Shown piece after piece: positions 16,271-59,421 of a DNA stretch of 64,000 nt. The position numbers and the translations under genes are program-made. Numbering within the stretch: position 1 is the first letter of the stretch; every line of letters starts with the position of its first letter. The stretch is from Candidatus Omnitrophota bacterium (lineage in GTDB: Bacteria; Omnitrophota; Gorgyraeia; Gygaellales; Profunditerraquicolaceae): the NCBI GenBank assembly GCA_020058085.1, contig JAGVER010000003.1:3708-67707 (forward strand), written 5' to 3'. The notes under the pieces are model-generated. The model was not told where the DNA came from. It made no database searches and saw nothing but the letters and a program-made list of their open reading frames with translations.

Positions 16271-16831
16271 ATGTATAAAGACCAAGCGATTAAAATTTAT
16301 TTAGATGATTTGGCAGCGAGATTACCTGCTCCGGGGGGAGGATCAGCCTGCGCGCTTAATGCTGCTATGGCTGCGGCATTGATAAGCATGGCAGTTAATT
16401 TTACTTTAGGCAAGCCTAAATATGAAAAGTATGAGAAAGAACTAAAAGAGATTTTAAATAAATCGGAAACCTTAAGAAAAGAGTTTTTGAATCTGGTGGA
16501 TTTAGATGTTACCGCTTATAAAAGTAAAAATATGAGAGATGTCCTTAATATTCCCTTTATGGTTGCCCGGCTCTCTTTTGAGGGGATAAAATTATGCCCA
16601 GTGCTTATAAAAAAAGGAAATATAAATTTGATTACCGATGTAGCAGTGGCTGCAATTTTTTTTGAAGCTGCTTTCGTTTCAGCATGCTCTAATGTTGAGA
16701 TCAATCTAAAAAGTTTAGGTGACAAAAAGTTAGCTAAGTCTGTTAAGGGAGAGCTTAACAAGAAAAATAAGCTCATTAAAAAAATAAGAATAGAGACGGA
16801 GAAGAAAGTTGGCGAAATTATTAGATGGTAA
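16271..16831 (+). CDS. Cyclodeaminase/cyclohydrolase family protein (FtcD C-terminal domain-like)
   Basis: LDDLAARLPAPGGGSACALNAAMAAALISMAVNFTLGK is the hallmark N-terminal helix pair of this folate-binding family. Confidence 0.75.
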   Translation: MYKDQAIKIYLDDLAARLPAPGGGSACALNAAMAAALISMAVNFTLGKPKYEKYEKELKEILNKSETLRKEFLNLVDLDVTAYKSKNMRDVLNIPFMVARLSFEGIKLCPVLIKKGNINLITDVAVAAIFFEAAFVSACSNVEINLKSLGDKKLAKSVKGELNKKNKLIKKIRIETEKKVGEIIRW

Positions 16832-17690
16832 AATATTAGCAGAAAGAATTAAGGAAGAGATAAAGGCGCAGATTTCTTCTTTAAAGTTTAAGCCAGTCTT
16901 GGCTAGTATTATGGTTGGAAATAATTGTGGAGCTGCTAGTTATGTTAAATCGCAACAGAAAACAGCAGAGGTATTAGGCATTGAATATCAGCTGCATAAG
17001 TTGGTTCAGGATTCTAGCGAAGCGCATCTATCTGATTTTATTCAAAGATTAAATGTTAATAAATCCGTAAATGGAATTATTATCCAAATGCCGCTTCCTG
17101 CGCATATAGATTATAAGAGGATTAGCCAGTTTATCCTGCCTGAAAAAGATGTTGAAGGAATGCACCCTCAGAATATCGGTAAACTTTTATTTGGAGCTAA
17201 GGGCTTCATTCCTTGTGCGGCTGCAGCAGTTATGGAGTTAATTGCCGCAAGCGGAGTTGATTTATACGGCAAGGAGGCCGTAGTAGTAGGCCATAGCGAA
17301 ATAGTAGGTAAGCCTTTAACACTTTTATTGTTGGATAAATTTGCCACGGTTACAATCTGTCATCTTGCAACAAGTAAAGCCGGAAAATTAGAGGAGCATA
17401 TAAGGCGCGCAGAGGTTTTAATCGTTGCGGTTGGTAAGGCCCGATTGATTAAGGGGGAATGGATCAAAAAAGGCGCGGTAGTTATAGATGTCGGAATAAA
17501 TCGCGTAGGAGATAAAATTGTCGGGGATGTAGAATTTGAGGGAGCAGAGAAACTCGCCTCCTACATTACTCCCGTTCCCGGAGGTGTGGGCCCGCTTACA
17601 GTTATGATCTTAATGCGTAATTTAGTTGAGGCAGCTAAGCTGCAACAGGAACCAAAATATATTGGTGAGGCACCCAATTCTAAAGGATGA
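16809..17690 (+). CDS. folD: Bifunctional methylene-THF dehydrogenase/methenyl-THF cyclohydrolase (TTG start)
   Basis: AKLLDGK, VVVGHSEIVGKPL and TPVPGGVGPLTV. Confidence 0.95.
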   Translation: MAKLLDGKILAERIKEEIKAQISSLKFKPVLASIMVGNNCGAASYVKSQQKTAEVLGIEYQLHKLVQDSSEAHLSDFIQRLNVNKSVNGIIIQMPLPAHIDYKRISQFILPEKDVEGMHPQNIGKLLFGAKGFIPCAAAAVMELIAASGVDLYGKEAVVVGHSEIVGKPLTLLLLDKFATVTICHLATSKAGKLEEHIRRAEVLIVAVGKARLIKGEWIKKGAVVIDVGINRVGDKIVGDVEFEGAEKLASYITPVPGGVGPLTVMILMRNLVEAAKLQQEPKYIGEAPNSKG

Positions 17691-17719
17691 ATTGGTGCCC
17701 ATAACTATGGGAGTTAGAT

Positions 17720-18589
17720 TTGACATTCAAAGAAAAATTACAATCAGGAAAATTTATGGTGACCTCGGAGATCGGGCCGCCAAAAGGTATTGATATCCGG
17801 CAGCTTTTAGAGGACGCCGAGCTTATCCGTAATCGAGTTGACGCAATTAATGTTACGGATTTACAGAGTTCAGTTATGCGCCTTGGTTCTTTAGCGGTTT
17901 CAAGCCTGCTGAAGCATCACGGATTTGAGCCGATATATCAGTTGACCTGTCGTGATCGTAACCGTTTAGCGCTGCAATCGGATCTTTTATCTGCTGCTGC
18001 TTTAGGTATTGAGAATATTTTAATACTTACCGGAGACCATCCGGAATTAGGGGATCATCCTGACGCTAAACCTGTATTTGATTTGGATTCTGTCCAGCTA
18101 TTACAAGTAGCTAAAATATTAGAGTCTGGTGCGGATATGAAAGGTAATAGATTAGTTGGTTCATCGCCAAAATTCTGTTTAGGCGCAGTGGTTAACCCCG
18201 GGGCGGAGCCATTAGAGCCGCAGATTATAAAGATGGAGAAGAAGATTGCCGCAGGGGCGGAATTCTTTCAGACTCAAGCGGTCTATGATTTAAGAATATT
18301 CGAGAATTTCTTAAATAAAACTAAGCACCTAAAAACTAAAATTATAGCGGGGATAGTTTTACTTAAGTCGGCGGGTATGGCTAGATATATGAATCAAAAT
18401 GTTGCCGGCGTATCTGTTCCGGATAATTTGATTAAAGAGATGGAAGAGGCAAAAGATAAAACTGCTCTTTCTGTTGAAATTGCTTCGCGTTTGATTAAGG
18501 AATTAAAGCCTATCTGTGACGGAATACATATTATGCCGATTGGCCTCGATAAGGTAGTTCCGCGCGTATTAGATGCCGCATCATTATGA
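17720..18589 (+). CDS. metF: Methylenetetrahydrofolate reductase (MetF-like)
   Basis: FMVTSEIGPPKG, QLTCRDRNR, ILILTGDHP and FFQTQAVYD are typical of MetF TIM barrels. Confidence 0.85.
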   Translation: MTFKEKLQSGKFMVTSEIGPPKGIDIRQLLEDAELIRNRVDAINVTDLQSSVMRLGSLAVSSLLKHHGFEPIYQLTCRDRNRLALQSDLLSAAALGIENILILTGDHPELGDHPDAKPVFDLDSVQLLQVAKILESGADMKGNRLVGSSPKFCLGAVVNPGAEPLEPQIIKMEKKIAAGAEFFQTQAVYDLRIFENFLNKTKHLKTKIIAGIVLLKSAGMARYMNQNVAGVSVPDNLIKEMEEAKDKTALSVEIASRLIKELKPICDGIHIMPIGLDKVVPRVLDAASL

Positions 18590-19461
18590 ACAACCATATA
18601 GTTATAATCGGAGCTTCTGTTTCGGGCCATAATATTGCTTTACGTTTAAGGGAGAAGTCTAAGGAATGTCAGATTACCTTAATTAGTGAAGAGGAATATC
18701 CTGCCTATGACCATTTGAAATTGGCAGATCTCATCAGCAGCGTAATAAGCGAAAAGGATATCTTCCTTTGCAGCGAAGATAGTTATTCTAAACTCGGCAT
18801 AAATTTTATTAAAAACAAAAAAGTCGGAAGCCTGAATATTTCGAAGAAACTGCTTTATTTTAAGGATAAAGGAAGTATTAATTATGATATTTTAGTCATT
18901 GCTTCAGGGAGGAGCCCGGTTATCCCTGATATTCCTGGCGCCAAGAAGGAAGGAGTTTACCGTCTTTATACATTAAATGATGCCAAGGAATTTATCCAGC
19001 GTTATATAGCGCACCCGGTCTGCATTGTAGGTAGTAATAGTTTTGCCTTAAAAATGGCCGAGGCGGTCTCGAGAAAATATGGCGTTGAGGTAAAGCTTTT
19101 AAGCTGCACTGCGTTTGATCCTTCCAATATTCCCCAGAATACGGAAATTATCAATGATTCTATAACAGAGATAATCGGTGAAGGGGAGACTCAGGCAATT
19201 AAGCTTGCGAGTGGCAAGGCATTAGGTGTTTGCGCTGTTTTATTTATGGATGACTATAAATCTAATATTGAATTCTTAAAAGAGACCGGCATCAAGATTA
19301 AAGATGATTTTGTTCTGGTAGATGGATGGATGCGCACCAATCAAGATAATATTTTTGCTTGTGGAAGCGTGGTGCGTAAAGATAGCGTAGTAATAAGCAT
19401 GATGTTGGTGGATCATATAATTAGTAAGTTAGGGGAAGTAAGTGCCAGGCTCTCTGTTTAA
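18586..19461 (+). CDS. Short FAD/NAD(P)-binding oxidoreductase (pyridine nucleotide-disulfide oxidoreductase family)
   Basis: N-terminal Rossmann segment IVIIGASVSGHNIA, then DILVIASGRSP, then IFACGS near the C-terminus. The second dinucleotide motif looks degenerate (IVGSNSFA). Confidence 0.6.
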   Translation: MNNHIVIIGASVSGHNIALRLREKSKECQITLISEEEYPAYDHLKLADLISSVISEKDIFLCSEDSYSKLGINFIKNKKVGSLNISKKLLYFKDKGSINYDILVIASGRSPVIPDIPGAKKEGVYRLYTLNDAKEFIQRYIAHPVCIVGSNSFALKMAEAVSRKYGVEVKLLSCTAFDPSNIPQNTEIINDSITEIIGEGETQAIKLASGKALGVCAVLFMDDYKSNIEFLKETGIKIKDDFVLVDGWMRTNQDNIFACGSVVRKDSVVISMMLVDHIISKLGEVSARLSV

Positions 19462-20719
19462 AAAAATTTCCCTGGTAAATATTGATATTCCTTTGCCTTA
19501 TTCTTCAGCCTTTGAAGGTGAGAGAATTAGCGAAAAAGATCTGCGAGTTGAATTTGGCGGCAAGAAAGGTCTAGCTCTTGAGTTTCTAACTTCAAAAAGC
19601 GAAGACGAAGTAGAAGATGGTAAGATTAAAATAATCGGCCCGGATATCGAACAGCTAGGGCTGGGCGGAAGATCTCTGCCTCTGGCTGTAATCGTTGATG
19701 TTTATGGCCGTAAGATGCAGAAAGATTTTGAGCCGATCCTAGAGCGTCAGATACATCGTTTTGTCAATTGTGCTCAAGGCTTGACGCATACAGGCCAGCG
19801 CCAGATGAATTTGATTAGAGTAAGCCACGAAGCTTATCGTAATGGTTTTAGATTAAAACATATCGGGGTGATATTACACGCAATGCTGCATCAGGAATAT
19901 GGCGCGATTGTAGATAAGGTACAGGTTAGATTATATACTAAGAAGGAAGCTGTTAAGAAACTGCTCATCGCGGCAAAAAAAGTTTTTGATCAGCGCGATG
20001 AACGCCTAAACGGAATGACTGATGAGAGTGTGGATACTTATTATTCCTGTTTGATCTGCCAGTCATTCACGCCAAATCACGTTTGTGTTATTACTCCGGA
20101 GAGAATAGGAATATGCGGGGCATATTCCTGGCTTGATGCCAAGGCTTCTTTTGAAGTTACTCCTACAGGTCCGAATCAGCCTATCTTAAAAGGTAAAGCG
20201 CTTAATAAAAGGCTGGGCCAGTGGAAGAGTGTAAATGAATTTGTGAGCAGTAAATCCAGTAAAGTAATAGAGAAGGTTAGTTTGTATTCCTTGATTAATT
20301 TTCCCCAGTCATCTTGCGGATATTTCGAATGTATTATTGCCATCATTCCTGAAGTTAACGGGGTAATGGTTGCGCATCGTAATTATTCCGGTCTGACTCC
20401 TTCCGGAATGGATTTTGTCGCTCTGGCAGGTTTAGTGGAGAGGGGGGCGCAAACTCCCGGGTTCTTAGGAGCGAGCAAATTATATATATTAAGCAAAAAG
20501 TTTATTTCAGCTGAAGGCGGGTTAAAGCGCTTGGTTTGGATGCCTAAAGAATTAAAGGAATTGTTAGGAGATAAATTGAAGAAAGCCGCCCAAGATATAG
20601 GGGAGCCTGATTTGCTGGAACAGATTGCGGATGAGGGAGTTGCTAACACTTTGGAAGAGCTCGTAAGCTTTGTTAAGAAGGTTAAACACCCGACTATTTT
20701 TATGGAATCGTTAATATAA
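19442..20719 (+). CDS. Acetyl-CoA synthase (AcsB/CdhC)-like protein, short form, with altered Ni-site tripeptide
   Basis: YYSCLICQSFTPNHVCVITPERIGICGAYSWLDAKASFE matches the A-cluster Cys block. It is followed by QSSCGYFEC where the canonical enzyme has Cys-Gly-Cys. Confidence 0.65.
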   Translation: MPGSLFKKISLVNIDIPLPYSSAFEGERISEKDLRVEFGGKKGLALEFLTSKSEDEVEDGKIKIIGPDIEQLGLGGRSLPLAVIVDVYGRKMQKDFEPILERQIHRFVNCAQGLTHTGQRQMNLIRVSHEAYRNGFRLKHIGVILHAMLHQEYGAIVDKVQVRLYTKKEAVKKLLIAAKKVFDQRDERLNGMTDESVDTYYSCLICQSFTPNHVCVITPERIGICGAYSWLDAKASFEVTPTGPNQPILKGKALNKRLGQWKSVNEFVSSKSSKVIEKVSLYSLINFPQSSCGYFECIIAIIPEVNGVMVAHRNYSGLTPSGMDFVALAGLVERGAQTPGFLGASKLYILSKKFISAEGGLKRLVWMPKELKELLGDKLKKAAQDIGEPDLLEQIADEGVANTLEELVSFVKKVKHPTIFMESLI

Positions 20720-25499: not shown

Positions 25500-26100
25500 G
25501 AAACTTGTTATTGGCGTAACCGGAATTTTTGGCAGCGGAAAAAGCACAGTCTCCGGTATACTCAAGTCTTACGGTTTAAAGATCATAGATGCTGATAAAA
25601 TAGCGCATAACTATCTTTTACCCGGGACTAGGACTTATAAAAAGATACTGGATTATTTTGGGAGAGGTATTCTCAAAAAAGATAATAAGATCGACCGGCA
25701 AAAACTTGGAAAGCTGGTCTTTGCTAATCAAAGACTGCTCAAGAGGTTGAATAGTATCGTACATCCCGAAGTAATTTCTGATATCAGAGAGGGTATTAGA
25801 AAATCAAAGGAAAAGATAGTTGTTTTAGACGCGCCTTTGTTACTCGAATCGGGATTAAGAAAGATAGTAGATGATTTGATTGTGGTAATAATAAAAAGAG
25901 ATGAGTTGATGAGGAGGTTAGCAAAAAAGTCTGTTTTAAAGAGGCCAGAGATCCTAGAGAGAATAAAATCTCAAATTCCGCAAAAAGTGAAGTCACGATT
26001 TGCGAATTTTATCATAGATAACAGTGGTAAGGTTAGCGAGACAAAGAGGCAGGTAAAAAAAGTGATGAAAAAAATTGAGGAGGGTATGTGGAGAAATTAG
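25477..26100 (+). CDS. coaE: Dephospho-CoA kinase
   Basis: [15 protein letters not shown]-loop, IDADKIAH and VHPEV. Confidence 0.85.
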
Positions 26101-27344
26101 AGATTAAGAATTTGAAAGATATGAAGATTACCGAATTAAACAAGTTGGCTAAGGAGCTTAATGCTAACGGGACAAGCGGATTAAAGAAGCAGGATTTAAT
26201 TTTTAAAATCCTGCAGGCTCAGGCGGAGAAAGAGGGCCTTATGTTTGGCGAGGGAGTTTTGGAGATTCTTCCCGAAGGCTTTGGTTTTTTAAGAAGCCCG
26301 AATTATAATTATTTGCCTTGCCCCGACGATATCTATATCTCCCCTTCACAAATAAGGAAATTCGACTTAAGAACAGGGGATACTGTTTCAGGGCAGATCC
26401 GTCCGCCGAAAGAAGGGGAAAAATATTTCGCCCTGCTTAAGGTTGAAGCGGTAAACTTTGAGAACCCGGATGACCTTAAAGAAAAGGTGCTTTTTGATAA
26501 TCTCACTCCGGTTTATCCGCATGATGCTTTTGGCCTTGAAACTAAGCCGGATGAAGTATCTATGAGGGTTATGAATTTGCTTGCTCCGATAGGTAAAGGT
26601 CAGCGTGGTTTAATTGTTGCCCAGCCCTATAGCGGGAAAACTGTACTTCTGCAGAAGATCGCCAATGCCATAACTACAAATAATCCGGATGTAATCCTAA
26701 TTGTACTTTTAATTGATGAGCGCCCGGAAGAAGTTACAGATATGCAACGGCATGTCAAGGGAGAGGTTATCTCTTCTACATTTGATGAACCTCCGGAGAG
26801 ACATGTACAGGTAGCTGAAATTGTATTGGAGAAAGCTAAAAGGTTGGTTGAGCATAAGCGTGATGTAGTCGTTTTGTTAGATAGTATAACGCGACTCGCC
26901 CGCGCCTACAATTCAGTTGTTCCGCATAGCGGCAAGGTTCTTTCAGGCGGAGTTGATTCTAACGCTCTGCAGAAACCTAAGAGATTTTTTGGAGCAGCGC
27001 GAGCGGTTGAAGAAGGCGGGAGCCTGACAATTATTGCTACGGCGCTGGTCGATACCGGAAGCCGTATGGATGAGGTTATCTTCGAAGAATTTAAGGGCAC
27101 AGGAAATATGGAGACCCAGCTCGATAGAAACTTATTCCAGCGTAGAATTTATCCGGCTATTGATATTAAACGCTCGAATACCCGGCATGAAGAGCTTCTG
27201 GTTAAACCGGATGTATTGCAGAAGACTTGGATCTTGAGGAAAGTGCTTAATGAATTAAATAATGTTGAGGCAATGGAACTTTTAGTCGGTAAACTTAGTA
27301 AGACCAAGAACAATGAAGAGTTTTTAAATAGTATGAATCAATAA
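26088..27344 (+). CDS. rho: Transcription termination factor Rho
   Basis: N-terminal Rho_N ([16 protein letters not shown]), a cold-shock-like RNA-binding domain, a [11 protein letters not shown]-loop and [11 protein letters not shown]. Confidence 0.95.
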
Positions 27345-29415: not shown

Positions 29416-30670
29416 ATTAATTATTGAAGGTGGAGTAAAACTTAAGGGTGAAGTGATTATCTCGGGGGCTAAGAATTCGGTTCTACCGATTATGGCTGCT
29501 ACATTGCTTACTGATGATGCTTGTCTGATTAAAGGCGTTCCGGAATTACGGGATACTAACACTATGGTCAAGATATTACGCTCTTTAGGTAAAGGAGTTG
29601 AATTTAATAAGGGGATGGTAACAGTCGCCACTCTTAAAAATACAAATTATGTTGCGGATTATAAGCTTGTTTCTACTATGCGCGCTTCTTTTTGTGTTTT
29701 GGGCCCACTTTTGGGGAAGTTAAAAAAAGCCAAGGTTTCTCTCCCTGGAGGATGTATTATTGGTGTGCGCCCGGTTGATTTACATTTAAAAGGAATAAAA
29801 GCTTTGGGCGCAGAGATAAGTATTGATTCGGGTTATGTCTTGGCAAAAGCCAAGAAATTAAAAGGTACTCATATTTATTTGGGTGGTGTTTATGGCTCTT
29901 CGGTATTAGCCACTGATAATGTTATGATGGCTGCGGTTTTAGCTTCTGGTAAGACTATAATTGAAGCCGCTGCATGTGAACCCGAAGTAGTGGATTTAGC
30001 GGAATTTTTGAATAAAATGGGCGCAAAGATTAGCGGCCATGGAACGCCAACCATAGAGATTGAAGGAGTTAAGCATCTGCACGGCGCAACACATACAATT
30101 ATCCCGGATAGAATTGAGGCAGGGACGATGATTTTGACCGCACTGATTACTAAAGGCGATATTATTATTAAGAATGTGTTGCTGCGGCACTTGGGCGCTT
30201 TAATCGATAAGTTAGAAGAGGCAGGTGTTAATATAATTAAAACGGATAATTCTATACACGTAAGTTATAAAAGGCCACTTAAAGCAGTGAATATTACCAC
30301 ACTTCCTTATCCGGGATTTCCTACTGATATGCAGGCGCAGATGATGAGCCTAATGTGCGTTACCCCAGGGATAACTATAGTGACCGAAAAGATTTACCCG
30401 GATAGGTTTATGCATGTTGCTGAACTTAACCGTATGGGCGCGCATATTCAGCGTGAGGGCCCCCATGCTATTGTCGAAGGTATTGAAAAATTATCCGGCG
30501 CGCCTGTTATGGCTTCGGATTTACGCGCTTCAGCATCGCTCGCATTGGCAGGCCTTGCAGCATCAGGTAAGACATCAATATCAAGGATATATCATCTTGA
30601 GCGCGGTTATGAAAATATCGAGAGTAAATTAGAGAAATTAGGTGCTAAGATTTGGAGAGAAAAAGAATGA
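29408..30670 (+). CDS. murA: UDP-N-acetylglucosamine 1-carboxyvinyltransferase
   Basis: [14 protein letters not shown] and the active-site Cys loop [15 protein letters not shown]. Confidence 0.95.
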
Positions 30671-31233
30671 TACTGATGATTGATAATTACGACTCTTTTA
30701 CTTATAACTTAGTCCAATATTTAGGTGGCTTTGGTCAAGAAGTAAAAGTATTTCGTAATGATAAAATAGATTTGGCCAAGATAAAGTCTTTAAAGCCCAA
30801 GGGGATAGTTATTTCACCCGGTCCGGGCCGGCCTGAAGATGCTGGAATATCTTGCGCGGTTATAAAAGAATTCTCCGGAAAGATTTCTATTCTCGGTGTT
30901 TGCCTCGGGCATCAGGCAATAGGTTATTCTTTCGGAGGCAAGATTATCGGGGCAAAAAAACTTATGCATGGTAAAACTTCATTAATATACCATAATAAGA
31001 AAGATATATTCCATAATATTCCCAACCCTTTTTTAGCAACGCGGTATCATTCATTAATCGTAGAGAGAAAGAGTCTGCCTAGTTCTCTTCAAGTGATAGC
31101 AGAGACAGAAGAGAAAGAGATTATGGGGTTAAAACACAAAGATTATCCTCTTTGGGGTGTGCAATTTCATCCGGAGTCTATTCTTACAAGTTCGGGTAAA
31201 GATATCTTAAATAATTTTATTAAATTATGCTGA
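30667..31233 (+). CDS. trpG: Anthranilate (or aminodeoxychorismate) synthase glutamine amidotransferase component (ATG 30667 overlaps the murA stop)
   Basis: [29 protein letters not shown] catalytic Cys, and GVQFHPES. Confidence 0.9.
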
Positions 31234-32234
31234 TTAAAGAAGCGATCAAGAGGTTGGCTCAGAAAAGAGATTTAGATAGAGAGCAGATGCAGGGTGTAAT
31301 GCTGGAGATATTAGGCGGGGTAACTGATAATGCCGATATAATTGCCTTTCTTACGCTTTTAAACGATAAAGGCGAAACGGTTGAGGAATTGACAGCGGCG
31401 ATAGAGTCAATGCTTAAATATGTTGATCCTATTATTGTTGACCGGCCGAATATATTAGATACTTGCGGCACGGGGGGAGATAGGAAAGGAACATTCAACA
31501 TTTCAACCATTACTGCTTTCGTAGCAAGCGGGGCAGGGGTTTGTGTGGCTAAACACGGCAATCGTTCTGTCTCAAGTAAGTGCGGAAGCGCGGATATATT
31601 GGAGGCTTTAGGTGTAAATATTAATATGAGTAAGGAAAAAATAAAAAAATGCCTGGAAGAGATCGGAATCGCTTTTTTATTTGCTCCTAACTTTCATCCA
31701 GCGATGAAAAATGTTATGCCTGCGCGCCGTAAGATTGCCACGAAGACTATGTTTAATATCCTAGGGCCATTGATTAATCCTGCGCGTGCGACAAATCAAT
31801 TAATCGGTGTTTATAGCCATAAGTGGACCAAAATTTTAGCACGAGTCTTATATAACTTAGGTACTAAACATGTTTTGGTAGTTCATGGTAAGGATGGCTT
31901 GGATGAAGTAACCACGACTGATAAGACTATTATCTCCGAGGTCTCTGATGGTAAGTTTAAGGATTATGAAATTGCCCCCGAGGACTTTGGTTTTAAGAGG
32001 GCTTCTTCAGAAGATCTTATTGGTGGAGATGCTAAGGAGAATGTAGGCATTGTTATGGATGTTTTGAATGGGAGATCCGGATTTAAGCGAGATATAGTTT
32101 TGTTAAACTCTGGTTGCGCCATATATGCCTCGGATAAAGCTAAATCAATAGAGGAGGGGATAAAACTGGCAAAGGAATCAATAGATAGCGGGGCAGCATT
32201 AAAAAAGTTAGGTTTATTAAAGGAGTATTCTTAA
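31227..32234 (+). CDS. trpD: Anthranilate phosphoribosyltransferase
   Basis: [38 protein letters not shown]. Confidence 0.95.
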
Positions 32235-32235
32235 G

Positions 32236-33027
32236 ATGAAGAGTGTAGATACTTTAAAGGATATTTTAACTAAGAAAAAAGAAAGGATTGCTTTAGCTAA
32301 ACAAGGTATAGCGGAGGAAGAATTAAAAGTAAGGGTTCAAGGTTTGCTTCCTACCCGGCCGTTTATTGAAGTAATCAATAAGCCGCGCCAGATTTCGCTT
32401 ATCGCCGAGATTAAAAAAGCTTCTCCTTCGCAAGGGGTTATCCGTCAGGATTTTAATCATATTGAGATTGCCAAGGCCTATCAGGATTCCGGAGTTCAGG
32501 CTATATCGGTTTTAACCGAGGAAGATTACTTTTTGGGGAATATAGCTTATATTAATGAAGTAAAAAATTTAACCACGGTTCCCATCTTAAGAAAAGATTT
32601 TATTCTCGAGCCGTATCAGATCTATGAGTCACGTTTTTATGGAGCGGACGCAGTATTGTTGATTGCAAGTTTGCTTACGCAGGATGAGATACTCCAGTTT
32701 TCAAGACTAGCTGATGAATTAGGTATGGATTCATTAGTTGAGGTGCATAATGAAAAAGAGCTTAAGAAAGTATTAAAACTAAAAGGCATACCACTTATCG
32801 GAATTAATAATCGCGATCTGCGTACCTTAGAGGTTGATCCTAAAACCGTTGAAAAGCTATTCCCGCTTCTCCCAAAAGACAAGGTAGTAGTCGTGGAGAG
32901 TGGGATTAAAACAGCGCAAGATGTATTATTCTTGAAAATTTTCGGGATAAATGCCATCTTGGTTGGAACGACCTTTATGCAAGCTCCCGAAATAAAGAAA
33001 AGCGTGGAAGGGTTGATGGGGTGGTGA
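32236..33027 (+). CDS. trpC: Indole-3-glycerol phosphate synthase
   Basis: IAEIKKASPSQG, LRKDFI, GINNRDL. Confidence 0.95.
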   Translation: MKSVDTLKDILTKKKERIALAKQGIAEEELKVRVQGLLPTRPFIEVINKPRQISLIAEIKKASPSQGVIRQDFNHIEIAKAYQDSGVQAISVLTEEDYFLGNIAYINEVKNLTTVPILRKDFILEPYQIYESRFYGADAVLLIASLLTQDEILQFSRLADELGMDSLVEVHNEKELKKVLKLKGIPLIGINNRDLRTLEVDPKTVEKLFPLLPKDKVVVVESGIKTAQDVLFLKIFGINAILVGTTFMQAPEIKKSVEGLMGW

Positions 33028-33632
33028 GAGTAAAGATTTGCGGAATTACTAATTTAGAGGATGCCTTAGCTGCGTTTTTTAGCGGTGCGGATGCCATAGG
33101 TTTTGTATTTTACAAGAAAAGCCCGCGTTATATTGATCCGATAAAAGCCAGAAATATATCGCGTATCTTGCCTAAAAAGATAATTAAGGTTGGAGTATTT
33201 GTTGATGAAAAAGAGGGCAAGATTAGGGGTATCTCTAAAATGTGCGCTTTGGATATGCTGCAGTTTCATGGTAGCGAATCGCCGGAATTCTGTTCTAGAT
33301 TTAAAGGATATAAGATTATTAAGGCTTTCAGGATTGAGGATAAGTTGGAATTAGCGAAATTAAAAAAGTATAAGACATTTGCTTATCTTTTTGATACTTT
33401 TTCTAAATATAAAGCCGGAGGCACAGGAAGAAAGTTTGATTGGAATTTATTGCGGGAAAAGAGTAGAATAAAGCGTCCGGTTTTCTTGTCCGGAGGATTA
33501 AATATAAGGAATATAAAGTCTGCGTTAAGAGAGGTTAATCCGGATTGGGTGGATGTTTCTAGTTCAATTGAATATAAGCCGGGTAAAAATGATCATAGAA
33601 AAATCCGGAATTTTATGAGAGTGATAAAATGA
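33021..33632 (+). CDS. trpF: Phosphoribosylanthranilate isomerase
   Basis: [35 protein letters not shown]. Confidence 0.9.
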
Positions 33633-34834
33633 AAAATAATTTGATCAATAAGAAGTTACCGGACAGGCTAGGGCATTTTGCGGAGTTTGGTGGCAGATTT
33701 GTTCCAGAAACGCTTATTTTTGCCTTAGATGAGTTGGAGAAGGAGTATGCCAAAGCAAGGCGGGATAAGAAATTCATCTGCGAATTAGATTATTATTTAA
33801 GAGAATACGCCGGCAGGCCCACCCCGTTATATTTTGCTAAGAACCTAAGTAAATATTTAGGGATACGTAAAATATATTTAAAGAGGGAAGACCTTCTACA
33901 TACAGGCGCGCATAAGATAAATAATACTTTGGGCCAGGCGCTTTTAGCCTTAAGGATGAAAAAGCCTAGGGTCATTGCTGAGACTGGGGCAGGCCAGCAT
34001 GGGGTTGCTACTGCTACTGTAGCCGCGCTCTTTGGTTTAAAATGTGATATCTATATGGGTGAAGAAGATATGGAGCGTCAGAAACCCAATGTTTTTAGGA
34101 TGAAACTTCTCGGCGCTAAGGTGATCCCTGTTAGAAATGGCTCTAAGACTCTCAAAGACGCGATGACCGAAGCTTTACGTGACTGGGTTACTAATGTTTG
34201 TGATACTCATTATATCATCGGCACTGTTGCCGGGCCGCATCCTTATCCTATGCTAGTCAGGGATTTTCAGGCGGTTATCGGTAAAGAAACAAAGCAGCAG
34301 CTTAAAACACAAGAAAATAGGTTGCCGGATTATTTAGTTGCCTGTGTAGGCGGCGGAAGCAATGCCTTAGGATTATTCCATCCATTCTTTAAAGATAAGA
34401 AAGTAAAGTTTATAGGAGTGGAGGCAGGCGGAAGAGGGTTATCTTTAGGCGAGCATGCAGCGACGTTAGTCAATGGGAAGATCGGCGTATTACATGGTTC
34501 AAAGTCCGGGTTGCTGCAGAATGATTCAGGACAGGTTAGCCCTACGCATTCTATTTCCGCGGGATTGGATTATCCCGGAGTTGGCCCGGAGCATGCTTAT
34601 TATAAGAAAATAGGCCGCGCCGAATATTTTGCGGTTAATGATAAAGAGGCTTTAGCGGGTTTTGAGTTGCTCTCTAAATTAGAAGGTATAATTCCGGCGT
34701 TAGAATCTGCTCATGCAGTGGCTTATTTAAAGAAAATGCCTAAGAATAAAATTAGGGATGCTATTGTTGTTGTCTGTTTATCCGGCAGGGGAGATAAAGA
34801 TTTAGGGATCGTCACCCGGGAACTAAAAATATGA
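33629..34834 (+). CDS. trpB: Tryptophan synthase beta chain
   Basis: [12 protein letters not shown]-lysine motif, [16 protein letters not shown]. Confidence 0.95.
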
Positions 34835-35619
34835 ACCGTATAGAAAAGAAGTTTAAGGAACTAAAAAAATCTAAGCAAAAGGCGTTCATTGCCTTCATTA
34901 CTGCCGGTTACCCCAGTTTGAATATCACTGAAAAGCTGGTTGTAGAATTTGAGAGATCCGGCGTAGATATTATAGAATTGGGCGTGCCTTTCTCTGATCC
35001 TATGGCTGATGGCCCAATAATCCAAGAGGCATCCTGCGAAGCGCTAAAGAAAAATATCCGGCTTGTTGATATTTTGAGTTTAGTGAAAAAATTACGCAAA
35101 AGGGTAAATATCCCTATAATACTTATGACTTATTATAATCCTATATTTTCTTTAGGCGATAATAAATTCATTAGCATGGCTGTAGAGTCGGGAGTGGATG
35201 GGGTGATTATTCCTGATCTTCCTGCTGATGAAGGAAAAGATTTTATTCTCAAAGCTAACAAATCCGGATTAAATAATATCTGCTTTATCTCTCCCACGAC
35301 AAGCCTTAGACGGATAAAGTTTATTTCTGCTCTAGCCAGAGGTTTTATTTATTATGTTTCTTTAGCCGGGGTTACGGGCATTCGCAAAGCCATTGCCTCT
35401 AATCTGAAACAGAATATCAAAAGAATCAAACGATATACAGATAAACCCCTATGTGTTGGTTTTGGTGTATCCAGCAGTGAACAGGTGAGAGAGGTTGGAA
35501 GAATAGCTGATGGTGTTATCGTGGGTAGCGCAATCGTAGCCAAGATAAGAGAAAATATTAATAATCCATCTTTGGTTAAAAGAGTAAGTGAATTCGTGCG
35601 GGGGCTAAAGGGGAGATGA
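34831..35619 (+). CDS. trpA: Tryptophan synthase alpha chain
   Basis: [17 protein letters not shown] and GVTG...GFGVS motifs. Confidence 0.95.
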
Positions 35620-40216: not shown

Positions 40217-41905
40217 ATGAATAGCCACAAGATACTTAATCTCGCCGTATTAAATTCAATCTCTCAGGAAAAATTAAGCAAAGAGTTAAACATATCTAAG
40301 GTTCTTGCTCAAATTCTCATTAATCGCGGCCTAACCGATCCTCTCCAGGCCGAGAAATTTCTTAATGTAAGCCTAAAAGAGATGCATGACCCGTTTTCTT
40401 TTTCAGATATGGCTCAAGTAGTTGATAGGATTAAGCGGGCTGCGACAAAAAAAGAAAAGATTATGGTTTTTGGCGATTATGATGTTGATGGTATAACCAG
40501 TGTAGCTATTCTTAAGAATAATCTGGATAAGCTGGGCTTAAACGCTGACTATTATCTGCCTCATCGCATCAAAGAGGGATATGGTTTGCCTAAAAACATA
40601 TTAAAGATTGCTCAAGAGAGAAAGATTAATCTTGTTATTACTGCTGACTGCGGAACAAGTAATAGCCGTGAAGTAGAGGATTTAAAGCGGCATAATATCA
40701 ATACTATTATTACTGATCATCATGAACCTTCGATCAAAGATTTACCTTCCGCAGTAGGTATTATTAACCCGAAAGTTAAAAATTCTACCTATAAATACCG
40801 GGAATTAGCCGGAGTAGGAGTTGCTTATAAATTATGCCAGGCTCTTACGCAATCAAAGTTGATAGATGATCTGGATTTAGTGACCTTAGGTACAATCGCT
40901 GATGTAGTTCCTTTAACCGGAGAGAATCGTGTATTTGTAAAAGAAGGGTTGAAAGCTTTCCCGCAGACGAAAAGGCCGGGGCTTAAAGCAATGATCGAGA
41001 ATGCGGGGATAAAGAATAAGAAATTTACTCCTACATTTGTCAGTTTTATCATTGGCCCGAGATTAAATGCTTCGGGCCGGATGGATTCAGCGGATGCTTC
41101 CTTAAAATTATTAATGACAAGTAATGATCAAGAGGCGCAGGAATTGGCAGGTCTACTTGAGCAGCATAACCGCTCGCGCCAGCGCATCGAAGGCAAGATT
41201 TTAGAAGAGGCGGAAGCGATTATTAATAAAGATGTCAATTTTAAGAAACATAAAGTAATCGTAGTAGCCAAAGAAGACTGGCATCAGGGTGTTTTAGGTA
41301 TAGTAGCCTCAAAACTTGCGGATAGATTCTATCGCCCGGCAATTGTTATCTCTCTTAACGAAGATATTTGCAAAGGGTCAGGGCGCTCAATAAAGAACTT
41401 CCATCTTTTCCACGCGCTTGGCGAATGCAGTGAATTTTTACATGCTTTTGGCGGCCACGCTCATGCTGTAGGGCTGACAATTACCCGCGAAAGCATTGAC
41501 GATTTTAGGGATAGTATTAACCGCTTAGCGCATGACAAATTGTCCTTTGAAGATCTTCTGCCTAGCTTAGAAGTTGATATGGAATTAAGTTTAGCGGATT
41601 TGAATGAGAAAACAGTCCAAGAATTAGAAAAATTAGAGCCTTTTGGCATGGGTAATCCTGAACCTTTATTCTATACCCGTGGCCTTAAGCTAAAAGGAGA
41701 GCCTCAAAATCTTGCCCGTGAAACAATAAAATTCTGGGTTACTGATGGCGAGAATACTCATCAGGTTATAGGTTTCGGGATGAGCAGCCTGACAATGGAT
41801 CTTAAAGAAGCAGATACTTTAGATTTAGTCTATAATGCGCGGATGGATAACTGGGGAGATGAACCTTCGGTGATCTTAGAGGCTAAGGATATTTTCTTTA
41901 AATAA
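40217..41905 (+). CDS. recJ: Single-stranded-DNA-specific exonuclease RecJ
   Basis: DHH family motifs VFGDYDVDGITS, ITADCG, ITDHHEP and GGHAHAVG. Confidence 0.95.
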   Translation: MNSHKILNLAVLNSISQEKLSKELNISKVLAQILINRGLTDPLQAEKFLNVSLKEMHDPFSFSDMAQVVDRIKRAATKKEKIMVFGDYDVDGITSVAILKNNLDKLGLNADYYLPHRIKEGYGLPKNILKIAQERKINLVITADCGTSNSREVEDLKRHNINTIITDHHEPSIKDLPSAVGIINPKVKNSTYKYRELAGVGVAYKLCQALTQSKLIDDLDLVTLGTIADVVPLTGENRVFVKEGLKAFPQTKRPGLKAMIENAGIKNKKFTPTFVSFIIGPRLNASGRMDSADASLKLLMTSNDQEAQELAGLLEQHNRSRQRIEGKILEEAEAIINKDVNFKKHKVIVVAKEDWHQGVLGIVASKLADRFYRPAIVISLNEDICKGSGRSIKNFHLFHALGECSEFLHAFGGHAHAVGLTITRESIDDFRDSINRLAHDKLSFEDLLPSLEVDMELSLADLNEKTVQELEKLEPFGMGNPEPLFYTRGLKLKGEPQNLARETIKFWVTDGENTHQVIGFGMSSLTMDLKEADTLDLVYNARMDNWGDEPSVILEAKDIFFK

Positions 41906-41910
41906 ACTTT

Positions 41911-42138
41911 TTAAGCTTTCTTAAGATCGCCTTTTTTGATACATTTGGCGCAGACGTAAACTCTTGTAGGTTGGCCTTTAATAAGAATACGTATTTTTTG
42001 CAGGTTGGGAAAGAATTTGCGCATACTCCAGCGGCTGATCTTAGAACCTGTTCCGCCTTTAGCCTTATATTGGCCTTTGCGCGCGACAGTTTTACCTTTG
42101 AGTGCACCTTTTCCACATAAAGCACATTTTTTAAGCAT
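41911..42138 (-). CDS. rpmB: Ribosomal protein L28
   Basis: MLKKCALCGKGALKGKTVA...RKFFPNLQKIRILIKGQPTRVYVCAKCIKKG is the L28 pattern. The overlapping ORF 41898..42125 is the wrong frame. Confidence 0.85.
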   Translation of the reverse strand: MLKKCALCGKGALKGKTVARKGQYKAKGGTGSKISRWSMRKFFPNLQKIRILIKGQPTRVYVCAKCIKKGDLKKA

Positions 42139-42168
42139 CTTCGTTACTCCTTAGTTATTAATTGAACT

Positions 42169-42196
42169 AGTATACTTGAAAAAGTGGCATTGTCAA
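42169..42196 (-). promoter_or_regulatory. Sigma70-type promoter for rpmB (minus strand)
   Basis: The minus strand reads TTGACA (complement of 42191-42196), a 16-bp spacer, then TATACT (complement of 42169-42174). Confidence 0.65.
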
Positions 42197-42246
42197 GAGG
42201 GTTTCTCATCTAGCCTGTTTCTCTCCGATTTTAAGCGTAGGTTATG

Positions 42247-42304
42247 GGGGACGGTTCTATTTTTCCATTTTTCTAGGTTTCTATTGAAAAATAGAACTGT
42301 CCCC
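42247..42304. promoter_or_regulatory. 18-bp inverted repeat (1 mismatch) between the divergent rpmB and HTH promoters; operator or insulator/terminator hairpin
   Basis: GGGGACGGTTCTATTTTT (42247-42264) pairs with AAAAATAGAACTGTCCCC (42287-42304), followed by TAGTTTTT. A related half-site, GGACAGATAGTTCTA, occurs near 45320. Confidence 0.55.
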
Positions 42305-42320
42305 TAGTTTTTAAAAGAAC

Positions 42321-42349
42321 TTGACATTTATACACCAATGGCGTATACT
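42321..42349 (+). promoter_or_regulatory. Sigma70-type promoter for the XRE HTH gene
   Basis: TTGACA (42321-42326), a 17-bp spacer, then TATACT (42344-42349), 22 nt before the ATG. A GGAGG RBS is present. Confidence 0.7.
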
Positions 42350-42371
42350 TTAAGTGTGAAGGAGGCGCAAT

Positions 42372-42662
42372 ATGAACAATAAGAACTTTGGAGATTTATT
42401 AACAAGTATCGGACAGGCTAGGAAGATACATAGCGGCAGAATGAAACCCGGGAATATCTCTAAGTTTCATCCAATAATTGTAAAAAGAATACGTAAGAAA
42501 CTCCATAAATCCCAAACCGAATTTGCCTATTTAATCGGAGTTAGCGTTGATACTTTGCAGAATTGGGAACAGGGTAGGAGAAGGCCCGAAGGCCCGGCAT
42601 TGGCATTACTAAGAGTAGCGCAGTCTAATCCGGAAGTTGTTATAAAAGCTCTACATGCATAA
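42372..42662 (+). CDS. XRE-family HTH protein with MqsA/NadS-type antitoxin-like architecture, no cognate toxin ORF adjacent
   Basis: 96 aa. IRKKLHKSQTEFAYLIGVSVDTLQNWEQGRRRPEGPALALLRVAQSNPEVV is a classic HTH with the RxPxGxAxxLL tail. It has its own TTGACA-17-TATACT promoter. Confidence 0.75.
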   Translation: MNNKNFGDLLTSIGQARKIHSGRMKPGNISKFHPIIVKRIRKKLHKSQTEFAYLIGVSVDTLQNWEQGRRRPEGPALALLRVAQSNPEVVIKALHA

Positions 42663-42727
42663 TTTGTCCTTTAGAGCCCCATTTTTAAGGTTGCACCCGT
42701 ATTGAATCAGCAGTAGAATAAGTTTTG

Positions 42728-42976
42728 TAAATGTCTCTGGCAAGCTTCTCGCTCAGGTCGATTTTGCCACATAAAGTTACTATTTAGGCAATGCCAATGA
42801 TCTTTCGTATTTCGGCGGCAAAACAACTCGCGCTTCGGCTTCTGGCCTTGGCGCTCAAACAGTTTTGCCGTGCCTGTGTTGTCTCCCGCCTATGGCGGTA
42901 TCCACAGGCATTTCCTCAGTGCTCAAGCTCCATTGGCTAAAATCGACATTCGCTCGAACCATGCCAGAGACATTTA
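42728..42976 (+). repeat. ~249-bp element with 15-bp perfect terminal inverted repeats and several internal hairpins (MITE-like or structured ncRNA)
   Basis: TAAATGTCTCTGGCA (42728-42742) is the exact reverse complement of 42962-42976. The sub-terminal arms also pair (GTCGATTTTGCC / GGCTAAAATCGAC). Internal stems include CGGCAAAAC/GTTTTGCCG, GCCTGTG/CACAGGC and CCGCC/GGCGG. Confidence 0.7.
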
Positions 42977-43106
42977 AATAGGCTGAGGAGTCATTGGGAT
43001 TCATTGATTTGTTAGTAGCTATCTAGAAACGGTCTGGAATTTTTCGGATGATCATGTTGACAAAGGAGTAAAGAAATTGGATTTTTGACGGAGAGAATAT
43101 TAATTC

Positions 43107-44225
43107 ATGTTTGGACAATGGTTGGGCGGGACAATAGGAACAAATAAAGGTTTTTGTGTTTTGAATATAGAACCCGGTGCGCCATTAGAAGGCAGAATAA
43201 TGTTTTTTGACATGGACCAAACAAAGCATTCAATGTGGGCAAGCGTCTCTTTTAAGATAGAAAATGACAAGATAACAGGTAATTTATACAATTATCTGGT
43301 TTTCTACAAAAACGAATTAATAAAAAGCGAGGAATTAAATAAAGAAATCGCGCCTGAAAGATATCCAGTTACTGGCGAAATTAACGGCTCATTTATAGGA
43401 GGAAAGCTCAAGGGTAATTTTAAAACTAATGTAAATACTTTTGGAGAGTTTATTCTTACTAAAACCGTGCTTGGAGAGCCAACTAAGCCTAATCGAGAAA
43501 TGAGTTGGGGTGAATATAAGAAATTTGTCAGCGAGCTTGATCGAACCAACAAAGTCATAATCTTCCGGGGTCAATCCAATAATAATCAAAGATTAGTGAC
43601 TACTTACCATAGGTCAGGTAGGGCGGATTTATTTAGATATCTTGGTGGCGATATCCCAAATTTAGTTCGTTTTATAAATTTGATTCCGCCATACAAGTAT
43701 GATTTAAACAAAATCGGAGATCTTGATGCATTGTTAGGATTAGTTCAGCACCACGAATACCCAACTCCTTTCCTTGATTGGACAGAATCACCTTATATTG
43801 CTGCCTATTTCGCTTATAGAAAAGCAAAAAATGACCAACAGACCGACAAGGTTAGAATTTTCATTTTTGATACTGTTCCCTGGGTAAGTTTTTGGCAGGC
43901 AATAGCTCAAAACACTATATTAATAGCACCTAAGCCCGTTATTTCTATTCATAATCTTACCTCAACGAATAATAACCGAGCTATTCGACAAAAAGCAGTT
44001 TCAGTATTTTCTAATATTGTCGATATGGAAGCTTTTTTTGATGCGTCCAAAGAAACGGGGAAGTTGCCGGATTCTTTTTTTCAAAGAATTGACTTGCCAT
44101 ATTCTGAGAAAGAAGCAGCAATGAATGATCTTTTAGATATGGAGATTAGCACCGCAACATTATTCCCAGGTTTAGATGGGGTTTGTAGGTTCTTAAGTGA
44201 GCAATATTTTGGGAAAATAAATTAA
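43107..44225 (+). CDS. FRG-domain protein with unassigned ~130-aa N-terminal domain
   Basis: VIIFRGQSNNNQRLVTTYHR (the FRG motif at nt 43563-43571) and LGLVQHHEYPTPFLDWTESPYIAAYFA (the QHxGxPTxxLDWTxSP core of the FRG family). Confidence 0.75.
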   Translation: MFGQWLGGTIGTNKGFCVLNIEPGAPLEGRIMFFDMDQTKHSMWASVSFKIENDKITGNLYNYLVFYKNELIKSEELNKEIAPERYPVTGEINGSFIGGKLKGNFKTNVNTFGEFILTKTVLGEPTKPNREMSWGEYKKFVSELDRTNKVIIFRGQSNNNQRLVTTYHRSGRADLFRYLGGDIPNLVRFINLIPPYKYDLNKIGDLDALLGLVQHHEYPTPFLDWTESPYIAAYFAYRKAKNDQQTDKVRIFIFDTVPWVSFWQAIAQNTILIAPKPVISIHNLTSTNNNRAIRQKAVSVFSNIVDMEAFFDASKETGKLPDSFFQRIDLPYSEKEAAMNDLLDMEISTATLFPGLDGVCRFLSEQYFGKIN

Positions 44226-52834: not shown

Positions 52835-53472
52835 GATTAATCGAGGGGCCCAAGATTAACGCTTCAGGAGCCCGGGCTCAGATTATTAAACATCATAGTT
52901 TAAGCTTCTTTTCGTTTAGCGCCTGGATGGGCAGAGTTTCTTTTTTTAAAGATGAATTTAGAAAATTGTTTCATAGGGCTAAGCCGTTACAGTTTGACAT
53001 TAAGTCAATTAACAGTGTTTTGATTTTACTTGTTCTTATTTTGAGCGGTTATTTTTTGAGTACGCTTTTTAGTTCTATTGTTAGTTTGAAAAAAAATACT
53101 CATTTTGAATTAAAGGCTCCGGAAGGAACCGGCTCGGCAGCCTATCAAGATACCTCATTATTAAAAAAAGCGGCATCTTATTATTTGGAGAAAGTCAGGC
53201 AAAGAGATATCTTTAAGATGGGACAGAATAAAAAGGGTGCTACTGAGGTTGTTTCTCGCGGCCCTTCTTCAAGGATTATTGAAGTAACTCAGCATTTAAA
53301 ACTGGTAGGGATTTCCTGGTCTGATGATCCGGACGCGATGATTGAGGATACTAAGGCGCTAAGGACTTTTTTTGTAAAAAGGGGAGGGTTTGTTGGCGAG
53401 ATAAAAGTTCAGGCAATTTTTAAGGATAAGTTGATCTTAAGTTACGCGGGAGAAGAAACTGAATTAAGATGA
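52792..53472 (+). CDS. Hypothetical single-pass membrane protein, possibly a GspC/PilP-like secretin partner
   Basis: GTG start. One TM helix (VLILLVLILSGYFLSTLF). The C-terminal beta-rich segment LVGISWSDDPDAMIEDTKALRTFFVKRGGFVGEIKVQAIFKDKLILSY resembles secretin-docking HR/PilP domains. The function is an inference. Confidence 0.4.
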   Translation: MAQERSVTPEKQLLGLIEGPKINASGARAQIIKHHSLSFFSFSAWMGRVSFFKDEFRKLFHRAKPLQFDIKSINSVLILLVLILSGYFLSTLFSSIVSLKKNTHFELKAPEGTGSAAYQDTSLLKKAASYYLEKVRQRDIFKMGQNKKGATEVVSRGPSSRIIEVTQHLKLVGISWSDDPDAMIEDTKALRTFFVKRGGFVGEIKVQAIFKDKLILSYAGEETELR

Positions 53473-59420: not shown

Positions 59421-59421
59421 A

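Follow-up and report, generated by a model that had tools for sequence, protein, structure and literature searches.

The window analyzed here is a 64,000-nucleotide stretch from a Candidatus Omnitrophota bacterium (assembly GCA_020058085.1, contig JAGVER010000003.1, positions 3,708 to 67,707). The gene of interest within it encodes a shortened relative of the acetyl-CoA synthase (ACS) protein AcsB in which a nickel-binding cysteine is replaced by tyrosine, and we refer to its product as ACS'. The features of this gene and of its immediate upstream neighbors are given in Table 1. The frame upstream of the open reading frame (ORF) is closed by stops, with the GTG start lying immediately after in-frame stops. 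A Pfam scan of the protein identified the middle and C-terminal domains of ACS (A2 and A3) and no CODH_A_N, the N-terminal domain A1.

Table 1. Positions in the window of the ACS' gene, its domains and altered sites, and the genes directly upstream.
Feature	Position	Strand	Comment
fchA-like (FTCD_C) gene	16271-16831	+	Pfam
folD	16809-17690	+	Pfam
metF	17720-18589	+	Pfam
291-aa Pyr_redox_2 flavoprotein	18586-19461	+	Pfam; directly upstream of ACS'
Truncated Ni-ligand-deficient acsB derivative (ACS')	19442-20719	+	GTG start; 425 aa covering just domains A2 and A3
Middle domain A2 (Pfam CdhC, aa 16-171)	19487-19954	+	Pfam E 2e-58
Leu124 at the CoA adenine-stacking Trp position	19811-19813	+	Moorella 427 by offset; taken as Clostridium autoethanogenum Trp405
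C-terminal domain A3 (Pfam ACS_CODH_B_C, aa 182-425)	19985-20716	+	Pfam E 1.5e-108; A-cluster domain in canonical ACS
[4Fe-4S] motif C203-x2-C206-x8-C215-x9-C225	20048-20116	+	Equivalent to Moorella Cys506/509/518/528
Cys292-Gly293-Tyr294 in SSCGYFEC, replacing Ni-binding Cys595-Gly596-Cys597	20315-20323	+	Codons TGC GGA TAT
Glu333-Arg334 in place of invariant Gly-Gly (Moorella 636-637), GxVGGGxQTPGF loop	20438-20443	+	Fixed in all members with the Cys-Gly-Tyr motif
Ser345 in place of Gly648	20474-20476	+	Fixed in all members with the Cys-Gly-Tyr motif

HMMER aligned residues 8-424 of ACS' with residues 311-727 of Carboxydothermus hydrogenoformans ACS and 312-727 of Moorella thermoacetica ACS (E ~1e-145), and identity was 49-50% to solved bacterial ACS, with 45-50% over A2 and A3 to bacterial AcsB in general. 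An AlphaFold2 model (pLDDT 91.5) superposed on the Moorella ACS structure 3GIT with a TM-score of 0.94-0.95 and a root-mean-square deviation of 1.3 Å over 413 columns (Foldseek). The Pfam domains, PDB matches and model all place the A2+A3 fold of ACS in this protein, as the original prediction of a short ACS homolog, made from the DNA alone, had proposed. Against the bacterial-type AcsB models of NCBIfam, NF040764 and NF007078, ACS' scored 649 and 628 bits, below the cut-offs of 800 and 809, and matched profile positions 289-704 only. The cut-offs of the cdhC models were exceeded (TIGR00316, 399 vs 356 bits; NF003379, 424 vs 372 bits). Its nearest database proteins were all from Candidatus Omnitrophota, and it shared ~70% identity with the canonical AcsB of this phylum (717-730 aa, motif CGCFEC).

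Moorella residue numbers are used below, obtained from the alignment offset (query + 303). In the HMMER alignment the query segment sscgYfe stood opposite tscgCfe, placing Cys292 at Cys595 and Tyr294 (TAT, 20321-20323) at Cys597. The predicted change from Cys-Gly-Cys (CGC) to Cys-Gly-Tyr (CGY) was therefore confirmed at both codon and alignment level, with the Cys597 equivalent as the replaced residue. ACS' thus carries C292-G293-Y294 in place of the Ni-binding tripeptide. This position was Cys in 158/158 canonical Omnitrophota sequences and Tyr in 7/7 members of the group that shares the CGY motif (the CGY clade). Cys597 is a key ligand of the distal nickel, which is absent if Cys597 is unavailable, and its thiolate serves both nickels (PMC8910529). 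The four cysteines predicted to ligate the [4Fe-4S] cubane are all present and aligned as expected (C203, C206, C215 and C225); they were invariant in 47 aligned family members and, bar one C518S, in 70/70 family representatives. The same motif includes Phe209, at the Phe512 position, and Thr210, which replaces Ala513. Cys297 was considered as a compensating Ni ligand and rejected, since a Cys after Phe-Glu is general in the phylum, the canonical Omnitrophota motif being CGCFEC.

Clostridium autoethanogenum ACS stacks the acetyl-CoA adenine on Trp405; its Arg383 and His386 adjoin the A-cluster and have roles in acetyl-CoA binding, and Phe491 (Phe512 in Moorella) swings aside for CoA attack (bioRxiv 10.1101/2024.08.05.606187). 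Alignment offsets, from which the equivalence of Trp427 and Trp405 is also taken, indicated that ACS' has lost the stacking Trp (Leu124) and has kept Arg102, His105 and Gly118, the A2 equivalents of C. autoethanogenum Arg383, His386 and Gly399. Position 427 was Trp in 98.7% of the 158 canonical Omnitrophota sequences, Leu or Cys in 7/7 CGY members, and Arg in L083, a further short homolog described below. At the Phe512 position the CGY clade varied freely (F, T, L, L, L, F, H). Changes fixed in 7/7 CGY members at otherwise invariant sites were W427 to L or C, L508I, A513T, C597Y, G636E, G637 to R or N, and G648S, together with R333/334 to S, N or K. The Gly-loop changes (636/637 and 648) were partly convergent in L083, and these glycines were often lost in other family representatives that lack Ni cysteines.

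Seven distinct CGY sequences were recovered, with 65-86% identity, from independent assemblies held by JGI, ENA (Hainich groundwater) and NCBI and from Logan runs. The carriers of CGY-type genes include the Hainich H41 assemblies ERZ1292628/630/633, GCA_900218215.1, and runs SRR17021129/30 and SRR15311596/99. Five had the motif CGYFEC: the window protein (P0001) and P0002, P0003, P0004 and P0029, which were respectively 86, 82, 79 and 74% identical to it. The other two were P0005 (CGYVEC, 621 aa) and P0045 (CGYLEC, 420 aa). The Tyr codon was TAT in six sequences and TAC in one, the flanking Cys and Gly codons varied synonymously, and all seven reading frames were intact. A scan of JGI metagenomes gave at least one CGY-clade locus (L093), and among the GTDB species representatives listed the best match was 72% identical and canonical. 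Whether CGY is conserved within a clade, a point raised with the original prediction, was thus answered by Tyr in 7/7 members and also in a sister lineage with the motif S-G-Y or G-G-Y (the S/G-G-Y lineage).

Domain A1 forms the interface with carbon monoxide dehydrogenase (CODH), the tunnel gate and the CO alcove of ACS. Within the CGY branch it was removed by several different in-frame deletions. P0005 keeps ~200 aa of A1 with two internal deletions, whilst in P0002, P0003 and P0029 only a vestige 'LSEVDYSLPLINPLFKK' of the canonical 'PETNYYLPLINALLK' is left. P0045 has a separate junction, where MQLSE is joined to KTPLG, and in the window protein and P0004 the GTG start directly follows a stop. 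Every one of these N-terminal versions is in frame, and the start still overlaps the end of the flavoprotein gene. That A1 was cut away in frame more than once and A2-A3 left in place argues that the former became dispensable and the latter did not.

The genes upstream of ACS' were those named in the original prediction, Pfam identifying FTCD_C/FchA-like, FolD and MetF proteins and the Pyr_redox_2 flavoprotein. The fchA-like, folD and metF genes (16271-18589) are tightly packed into one unit with the flavoprotein and ACS' genes. Around the CGY genes the order was (tgt)-trmD-rplS-rnhB-yraN-fchA-folD-metF-flavoprotein-ACS'-TPR-polA-glgA-coaE-rho. An identical order was seen around the canonical 726-aa CGC acsB of the nearest relatives (L010/L012, from a Lac Pavin metagenome-assembled genome (MAG), and L011), and around the S/G-G-Y lineage acsB of L174. 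More widely, metF lay upstream of acsB in 83 of the 89 loci with enough upstream sequence. Because the same locus holds a canonical 726-aa CGC AcsB in related Omnitrophota, ACS' is a positional orthologue of canonical acsB and not a paralogue.

No CODH, AcsC, AcsD, AcsE, RACo or CooC was found in the window by Pfam analysis of every ORF of at least 150 aa except a giant ORF at the 3' end (at least 1,520 aa), which was covered by tblastn. The tblastn search of the whole window with CODH, AcsC, RACo, CooC, AcsD and AcsE from locus L084 gave no match at E<=1e-3, and no remnants. The absence of CODH and corrinoid partners from the window, as predicted, therefore held in both searches. It says little about ACS', because most canonical acsB loci also lack these partners: 70 of 95 canonical CGC loci had no CODH at this position and 92 of 108 had no AcsC downstream. 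Missing adjacent CODH was consequently rejected as a mark of degenerate forms (8/8 vs 70/95, p=0.19). The fullest arrangement observed was fchA-folD-metF-CODH-flav-acsB-acsC-RACo-cooC-acsD-acsE in L165, other loci being progressively reduced. L084 (5089-18901) holds a complete carbonyl-branch cluster of CODH, flavoprotein, AcsB, AcsC, RACo, CooC, AcsD, AcsE and FocA, and a similar cluster follows fchA-folD-metF in L165; the flavoprotein of this complete cluster (L084/L165) has 429 aa and a Rubredoxin_C domain. The window locus looks like a reduced version of the L084/L165 layout. Wood-Ljungdahl pathways without AcsA/CooS have been reported in 24 species of Omnitrophota (PMC10066038).

The S/G-G-Y lineage is full length (P0123, P0292 and P0293, 715-717 aa) and occurs in several NCBI Omnitrophota MAGs, where it is annotated as genuine ACS; proteins of this kind are MDD3987422.1, MFA5437580.1, MDD4981301.1, MDD5664588.1 and MDD3087519.1. 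Its member L174 (G-G-Y) was the closest to the CGY clade by PolA (68-69% identity, vs <=62.5% for CGY vs CGC forms), and the flavoprotein and MetF also made it the nearest. Tyr has thus been kept across a separation that reaches 31% PolA divergence. Domain A1 of the S/G-G-Y branch is still conserved, its rate of evolution being no higher than that of A2-A3. The simplest history is that C597Y arose once in a full-length protein, after which one branch lost Cys595 and the other lost A1.

A tree of six flanking genes recovered the CGY clade as monophyletic in 100/100 bootstraps, with the CGC-bearing L012, L014 and L109 as its neighbors. A further short form was found in L083 (10007-11260; MAG JBDRLG010000163.1), where the same locus encodes a 417-aa ACS with the motif CGTPEC and the changes W427R, G637Q and G648A. 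A neighbor-joining tree of ACS alone grouped L083, P0124, P0123 and the CGY clade. A single origin of L083 and CGY was rejected by the flanking-gene tree, which placed L083 among CGC lineages and united it with CGY in 0/100 bootstraps (P0124, without flanking genes, was outside this tree). The likeness of L083 to CGY in the ACS tree is therefore convergence or long-branch attraction, and L083 arose independently. L083 also has four extra ORFs between the ACS and TPR genes, three of which were scanned with Pfam, giving one nucleotidyltransferase and two without a match. Separately, the AcsB of L015 (287-1540; MAG JAQUOO010000067.1, contig coverage ~4x) reads CDFFEC (Gly596 to Asp, Cys597 to Phe). 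It is otherwise canonical and only 6% diverged from L016, and reflects either an error of the low-coverage assembly or an inactivation that happened very recently.

The survey of the wider family drew on clusters at 50% identity, with 70 near-full-length representatives. At least one of the two Ni cysteines was missing from 33 of the 70, a proportion that overstates the abundance of such forms since fast-evolving lineages split into more clusters, and all 70 kept the cubane (one with C518S). Trp427 was kept in 26/37 intact and only 4/33 degenerate representatives (Fisher p=8e-7), and Phe/Tyr512 and Gly636/637 showed a similar pattern. Besides the CGY clade, the forms without Ni cysteines included P0124 (SSL), P0130 (CSY), P0150 (SSL, Chloroflexota) and ~30 more cluster representatives. 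Loss of the Ni cysteines with retention of the cubane is clearly widespread and coherent across the ACS family. Literature searches on natural ACS homologs without Ni ligands or with Cys597 variants found only designed or model systems, and none gave a paper describing these forms.

Selection on ACS' is real but weakened. Within the CGY clade the ratio of non-synonymous to synonymous substitution rates (dN/dS, Nei-Gojobori) was 0.141 (range 0.09-0.175) at dS ~1.1, where dS is partly saturated, so that absolute values are rough and robustness is limited to the comparison with flanking genes. The eight such genes compared gave 0.043-0.114 at equal dS. Canonical AcsB pairs compared over the same region at comparable dS gave 0.074, equal to or below their own neighbors. 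The ratio of ACS to neighbor protein distance was 1.4-2.9 in CGY pairs and 0.45-1.5 in canonical pairs of matching divergence. CGY members had 11-22 deviations at 138 sites with >=97% conservation in the 158 canonical sequences, compared with a canonical median of 0 and maximum of 7. A2 was the most relaxed (0.175 in CGY vs 0.076 in canonical pairs), A3 less so (0.113 vs 0.073), and the most constrained region of ACS' was the cubane and motif core (0.068). ACS' is therefore under purifying selection that is 2-3-fold relaxed relative to canonical AcsB, and is not a neutral pseudogene: the seven frames are undisrupted and dN/dS, at 0.09-0.175, is not near 1.

The flavoprotein gene overlaps the start of ACS' by 20 nt (19442-19461), and its own start overlaps the metF stop by 4 nt. 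Across the loci set, almost every arrangement type has this gene directly upstream of acsB, and its dN/dS in the CGY clade was 0.075. In other Omnitrophota, Pfam identified fusions of Pyr_redox_2 with full-length AcsB (P0306 and P0122), and P0359 was listed with the same domains; the three are ~1,024-1,029 aa long. These fusions are a Rosetta-stone hint that the flavoprotein upstream of acsB (18586-19461) may work with AcsB. Many Omnitrophota AcsB proteins (P0121, P0317 and others) are called at 840-865 aa, with a ~128-aa N-terminal extension without a Pfam match, which may represent either a genuine additional domain or start codons systematically miscalled so as to overlap the flavoprotein gene.

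On balance we consider it probable that ACS' is an in-place descendant of acsB that is no longer an acetyl-CoA synthase and is kept by selection as a Ni-less, CODH-independent [4Fe-4S] protein. On the simplest history, the Cys597-equivalent Ni ligand had already given way to Tyr in the protein ancestral to both the CGY clade and the full-length S/G-G-Y lineage. Along the CGY branch, A1, the domain for CODH docking and the CO tunnel, was then removed by the different in-frame deletions, the CoA adenine-stacking Trp was replaced, and the Phe gating the proximal nickel was freed to vary, with the four cubane cysteines, Cys595 and the surrounding core kept under the strongest constraint. Such a protein would be unable to assemble the Ni-Ni part of the A-cluster or to dock CODH and would bind CoA poorly, and would therefore neither make nor cleave acetyl-CoA. 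What persists would be simply a [4Fe-4S] protein. As a hypothesis, it would most likely be retained for a structural or electron-transfer role with the upstream flavoprotein, to which it is translationally coupled here and AcsB is fused elsewhere, and this role might conceivably extend to the MetF methyl-branch module.

Several points weigh against this interpretation. Arg102, His105, Gly118 and Cys292 are retained, so some A-cluster-like chemistry may be possible, and a single Ni may be held by Cys509, Cys595 and another ligand (Tyr294 or Cys297). A second intact acsB, a CODH or a corrinoid iron-sulfur protein (CFeSP) may lie elsewhere in the genome. The conserved A1 of the S/G-G-Y sister fits poorly with all catalytic parts being dispensable. 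The partnership with the flavoprotein and MetF rests on adjacency, coupling and fusions to canonical (CGC) AcsB, in which the link may serve the genuine enzyme. The partial saturation of dS counts here too.

One alternative is that ACS' is an active enzyme with a remodeled metal site, in which a [4Fe-4S]-bridged single Ni or other metal sits on Cys206, Cys292 and either the Tyr294 phenolate or Cys297. With no need of CODH, this site could support CO, methyl or thioester chemistry or could cleave acetyl-CoA. Persistent purifying selection, the strict conservation of Tyr in the CGY clade and sister lineage, and the retained cubane and Cys595, Arg383, His386 and Gly399 equivalents would all fit such an enzyme; archaeal CdhC and the engineered 3GIT show that A2-A3 folds without A1, and Omnitrophota with ACS but no CODH have been reported (PMC10066038). 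However, the Cys597 thiolate serves both nickels and the distal Ni is absent without it (PMC8910529), the sister lineage has also lost Cys595 (to Ser or Gly) yet kept Tyr, and Cys297 is found in canonical CGCFEC as well, so that no compensatory change is seen. The CoA-stacking Trp is gone and the Phe512 position unconstrained, and across the family loss of Ni cysteines accompanies loss of the Trp, Phe and Gly loop. We therefore regard an active, remodeled enzyme as unlikely. For similar reasons a genuine paralogue of altered metal chemistry, as offered in the original prediction, does not describe ACS' best: the gene occupies the ancestral acsB locus, and the Trp loss and family pattern point to loss of the Ni site and not to a new site.

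It is also improbable that ACS' is a gene being lost, that is, a non-functional relic of a dismantled Wood-Ljungdahl cluster kept by short time or operon position. Amino-acid sequence cannot be conserved by operon position, and a dN/dS of 0.14 over a pairwise dS of ~1.1, with seven intact frames, is hard to attribute to short time, as is a Tyr state that persists across 31% PolA divergence. The N-terminal deletions are all in frame and have kept the start coupled to the upstream gene, even though A1 has been progressively eroded. What a relic would explain is the 2-3-fold relaxed constraint, the 11-22 deviations at otherwise invariant sites, and the lack of partner genes or remnants in the window when CODH and CFeSP are present in other Omnitrophota loci (L165, L084). 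Of the decaying gene put forward in the original prediction, the relaxation thus stood, whilst decay itself was contradicted by the low dN/dS and the intact frames of all members.

There is a similarly small chance that ACS' is an accessory or regulatory copy beside an intact ACS elsewhere, where it could serve as a scaffold for assembly or compete for CFeSP or CoA. The ancestral acsB locus is the very place that ACS' occupies, the loci examined showed no duplicate, and a competitor for CoA or CFeSP would be expected to retain the CoA-binding Trp. Finally, that the Tyr codon is an error of sequencing or assembly, or an uncommon variant in populations with a normal acsB, as the original prediction had allowed, can in practice be dismissed. 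One transition separates TGT from TAT, and the window contig comes from just one assembly, but CGY is fixed in seven sequences from the independent JGI, ENA (Hainich groundwater), NCBI and Logan assemblies, with both Tyr codons, other clade-specific changes and a missing A1.

Compared with bacterial AcsB (the alpha subunit of M. thermoacetica CODH/ACS, and the proteins of C. hydrogenoformans and C. autoethanogenum), ACS' shares the A2/A3 fold, the cubane cysteines, Cys595, and the Arg and His. It differs in the absence of A1, the replacement of Cys597 by Tyr, of the stacking Trp by Leu and of Gly636, Gly637 and Gly648, and in evolving 2-3x faster relative to flanking genes. Archaeal CdhC, the beta subunit of the complex ACDS (acetyl-CoA decarbonylase/synthase), likewise has no bacterial A1 domain and is comparable in size, and ACS' is 37% identical to Methanosarcina CdhC (9C0S). 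CdhC retains Cys-Gly-Cys and acts inside the five-subunit ACDS complex. Unlike it, ACS' is a secondarily truncated bacterial AcsB (~70% identity to the 726-aa Omnitrophota AcsB). The engineered Moorella ACS 3GIT (residues ~311-729) has almost the same extent as ACS', but is a laboratory construct with native Ni ligands, whereas ACS' arose by natural in-frame deletions and has lost one Ni ligand. ACS genes without AcsA/CooS are also found in Velamenicoccus archaeovorus-type Omnitrophota and in Dehalococcoides mccartyi; those incomplete pathways are described with functional ACS, and the canonical neighbors keep CGC and A1, of which ACS' has neither. Further parallels are the other homologs without Ni cysteines (L083, P0123/P0292/P0293, P0124, P0130, P0150), which vary in lineage and length (~410-730 aa) and, like ACS', keep the cubane and often lack the Trp, Phe and Gly loop.

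AcsB/CdhC is the standard Wood-Ljungdahl marker gene in metagenome-based metabolic reconstructions. ACS' passes the cdhC equivalog cut-off, and database entries for its degenerate relatives carry the name 'acetyl-CoA decarbonylase/synthase complex subunit alpha/beta', so that acetogenesis or autotrophy would be wrongly assigned to genomes with only such forms. This mis-annotation would be avoided by inspecting the Cys-Gly-Cys motif and the CoA-stacking Trp. The series runs from canonical AcsB through full-length C597Y to either loss of Cys595 or deletion of A1 in steps, and it dissects the enzyme naturally: the parts tied to nickel chemistry (the Ni cysteines, Trp, gating Phe and Gly-rich loop) were lost together and the cubane core was kept for another reason. 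If about half of the diverse ACS family clusters lack the Ni site but hold the cubane, this ancient fold would have an unexplored function. A more general proposal, which we offer tentatively and regard as doubtful, is that Ni-cysteine-less ACS derivatives form a widespread, undescribed class of functional [4Fe-4S] proteins that has arisen repeatedly. In Omnitrophota such proteins may form an electron-transfer module with the adjacent and sometimes fused FAD/NAD(P)H flavoprotein, for example feeding MetF in a methyl branch that outlives the carbonyl branch. If this were true, ACS would have a second, nickel-independent function selectable on its own.

Elsewhere in the window, ARAGORN found no tRNA or tmRNA in the 64 kb, and no Rfam family reached the gathering threshold. 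Downstream of ACS', rho (26088-27344, + strand) is nearly invariant, with 1 difference in 418 aa compared with L001 (PolA differs by 11%), and the window Rho is 97.8% identical to that of L174, whose PolA is only 68% identical. A compact tryptophan operon (30652-35619, + strand) follows aroA and consists of a trpG-like GATase, trpD, trpC, trpF, trpB and trpA. Few ORFs are found over ~1.2 kb at 41905-43107. This region is followed on the + strand by an FRG-domain protein (43107-44225) and a UvrD-helicase/PD-(D/E)XK nuclease (AddA-like, 969 aa; 45488-48397), with a 284-aa ORF without a Pfam match between the two. Secretion-system genes include a T2SSE ATPase (244-1503) and a secretin (53469-55310). 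The giant ORF (~59,420-64,000, + strand) runs off the 3' end of the window after at least 1,520 aa. The protein starts with what resembles a signal peptide (MNKISSNFVKKLRKLHFVIALAVLGGFLFASTAEA), and the ORF is similar to the giant 'big ORF' genes reported in Omnitrophota by Seymour et al.

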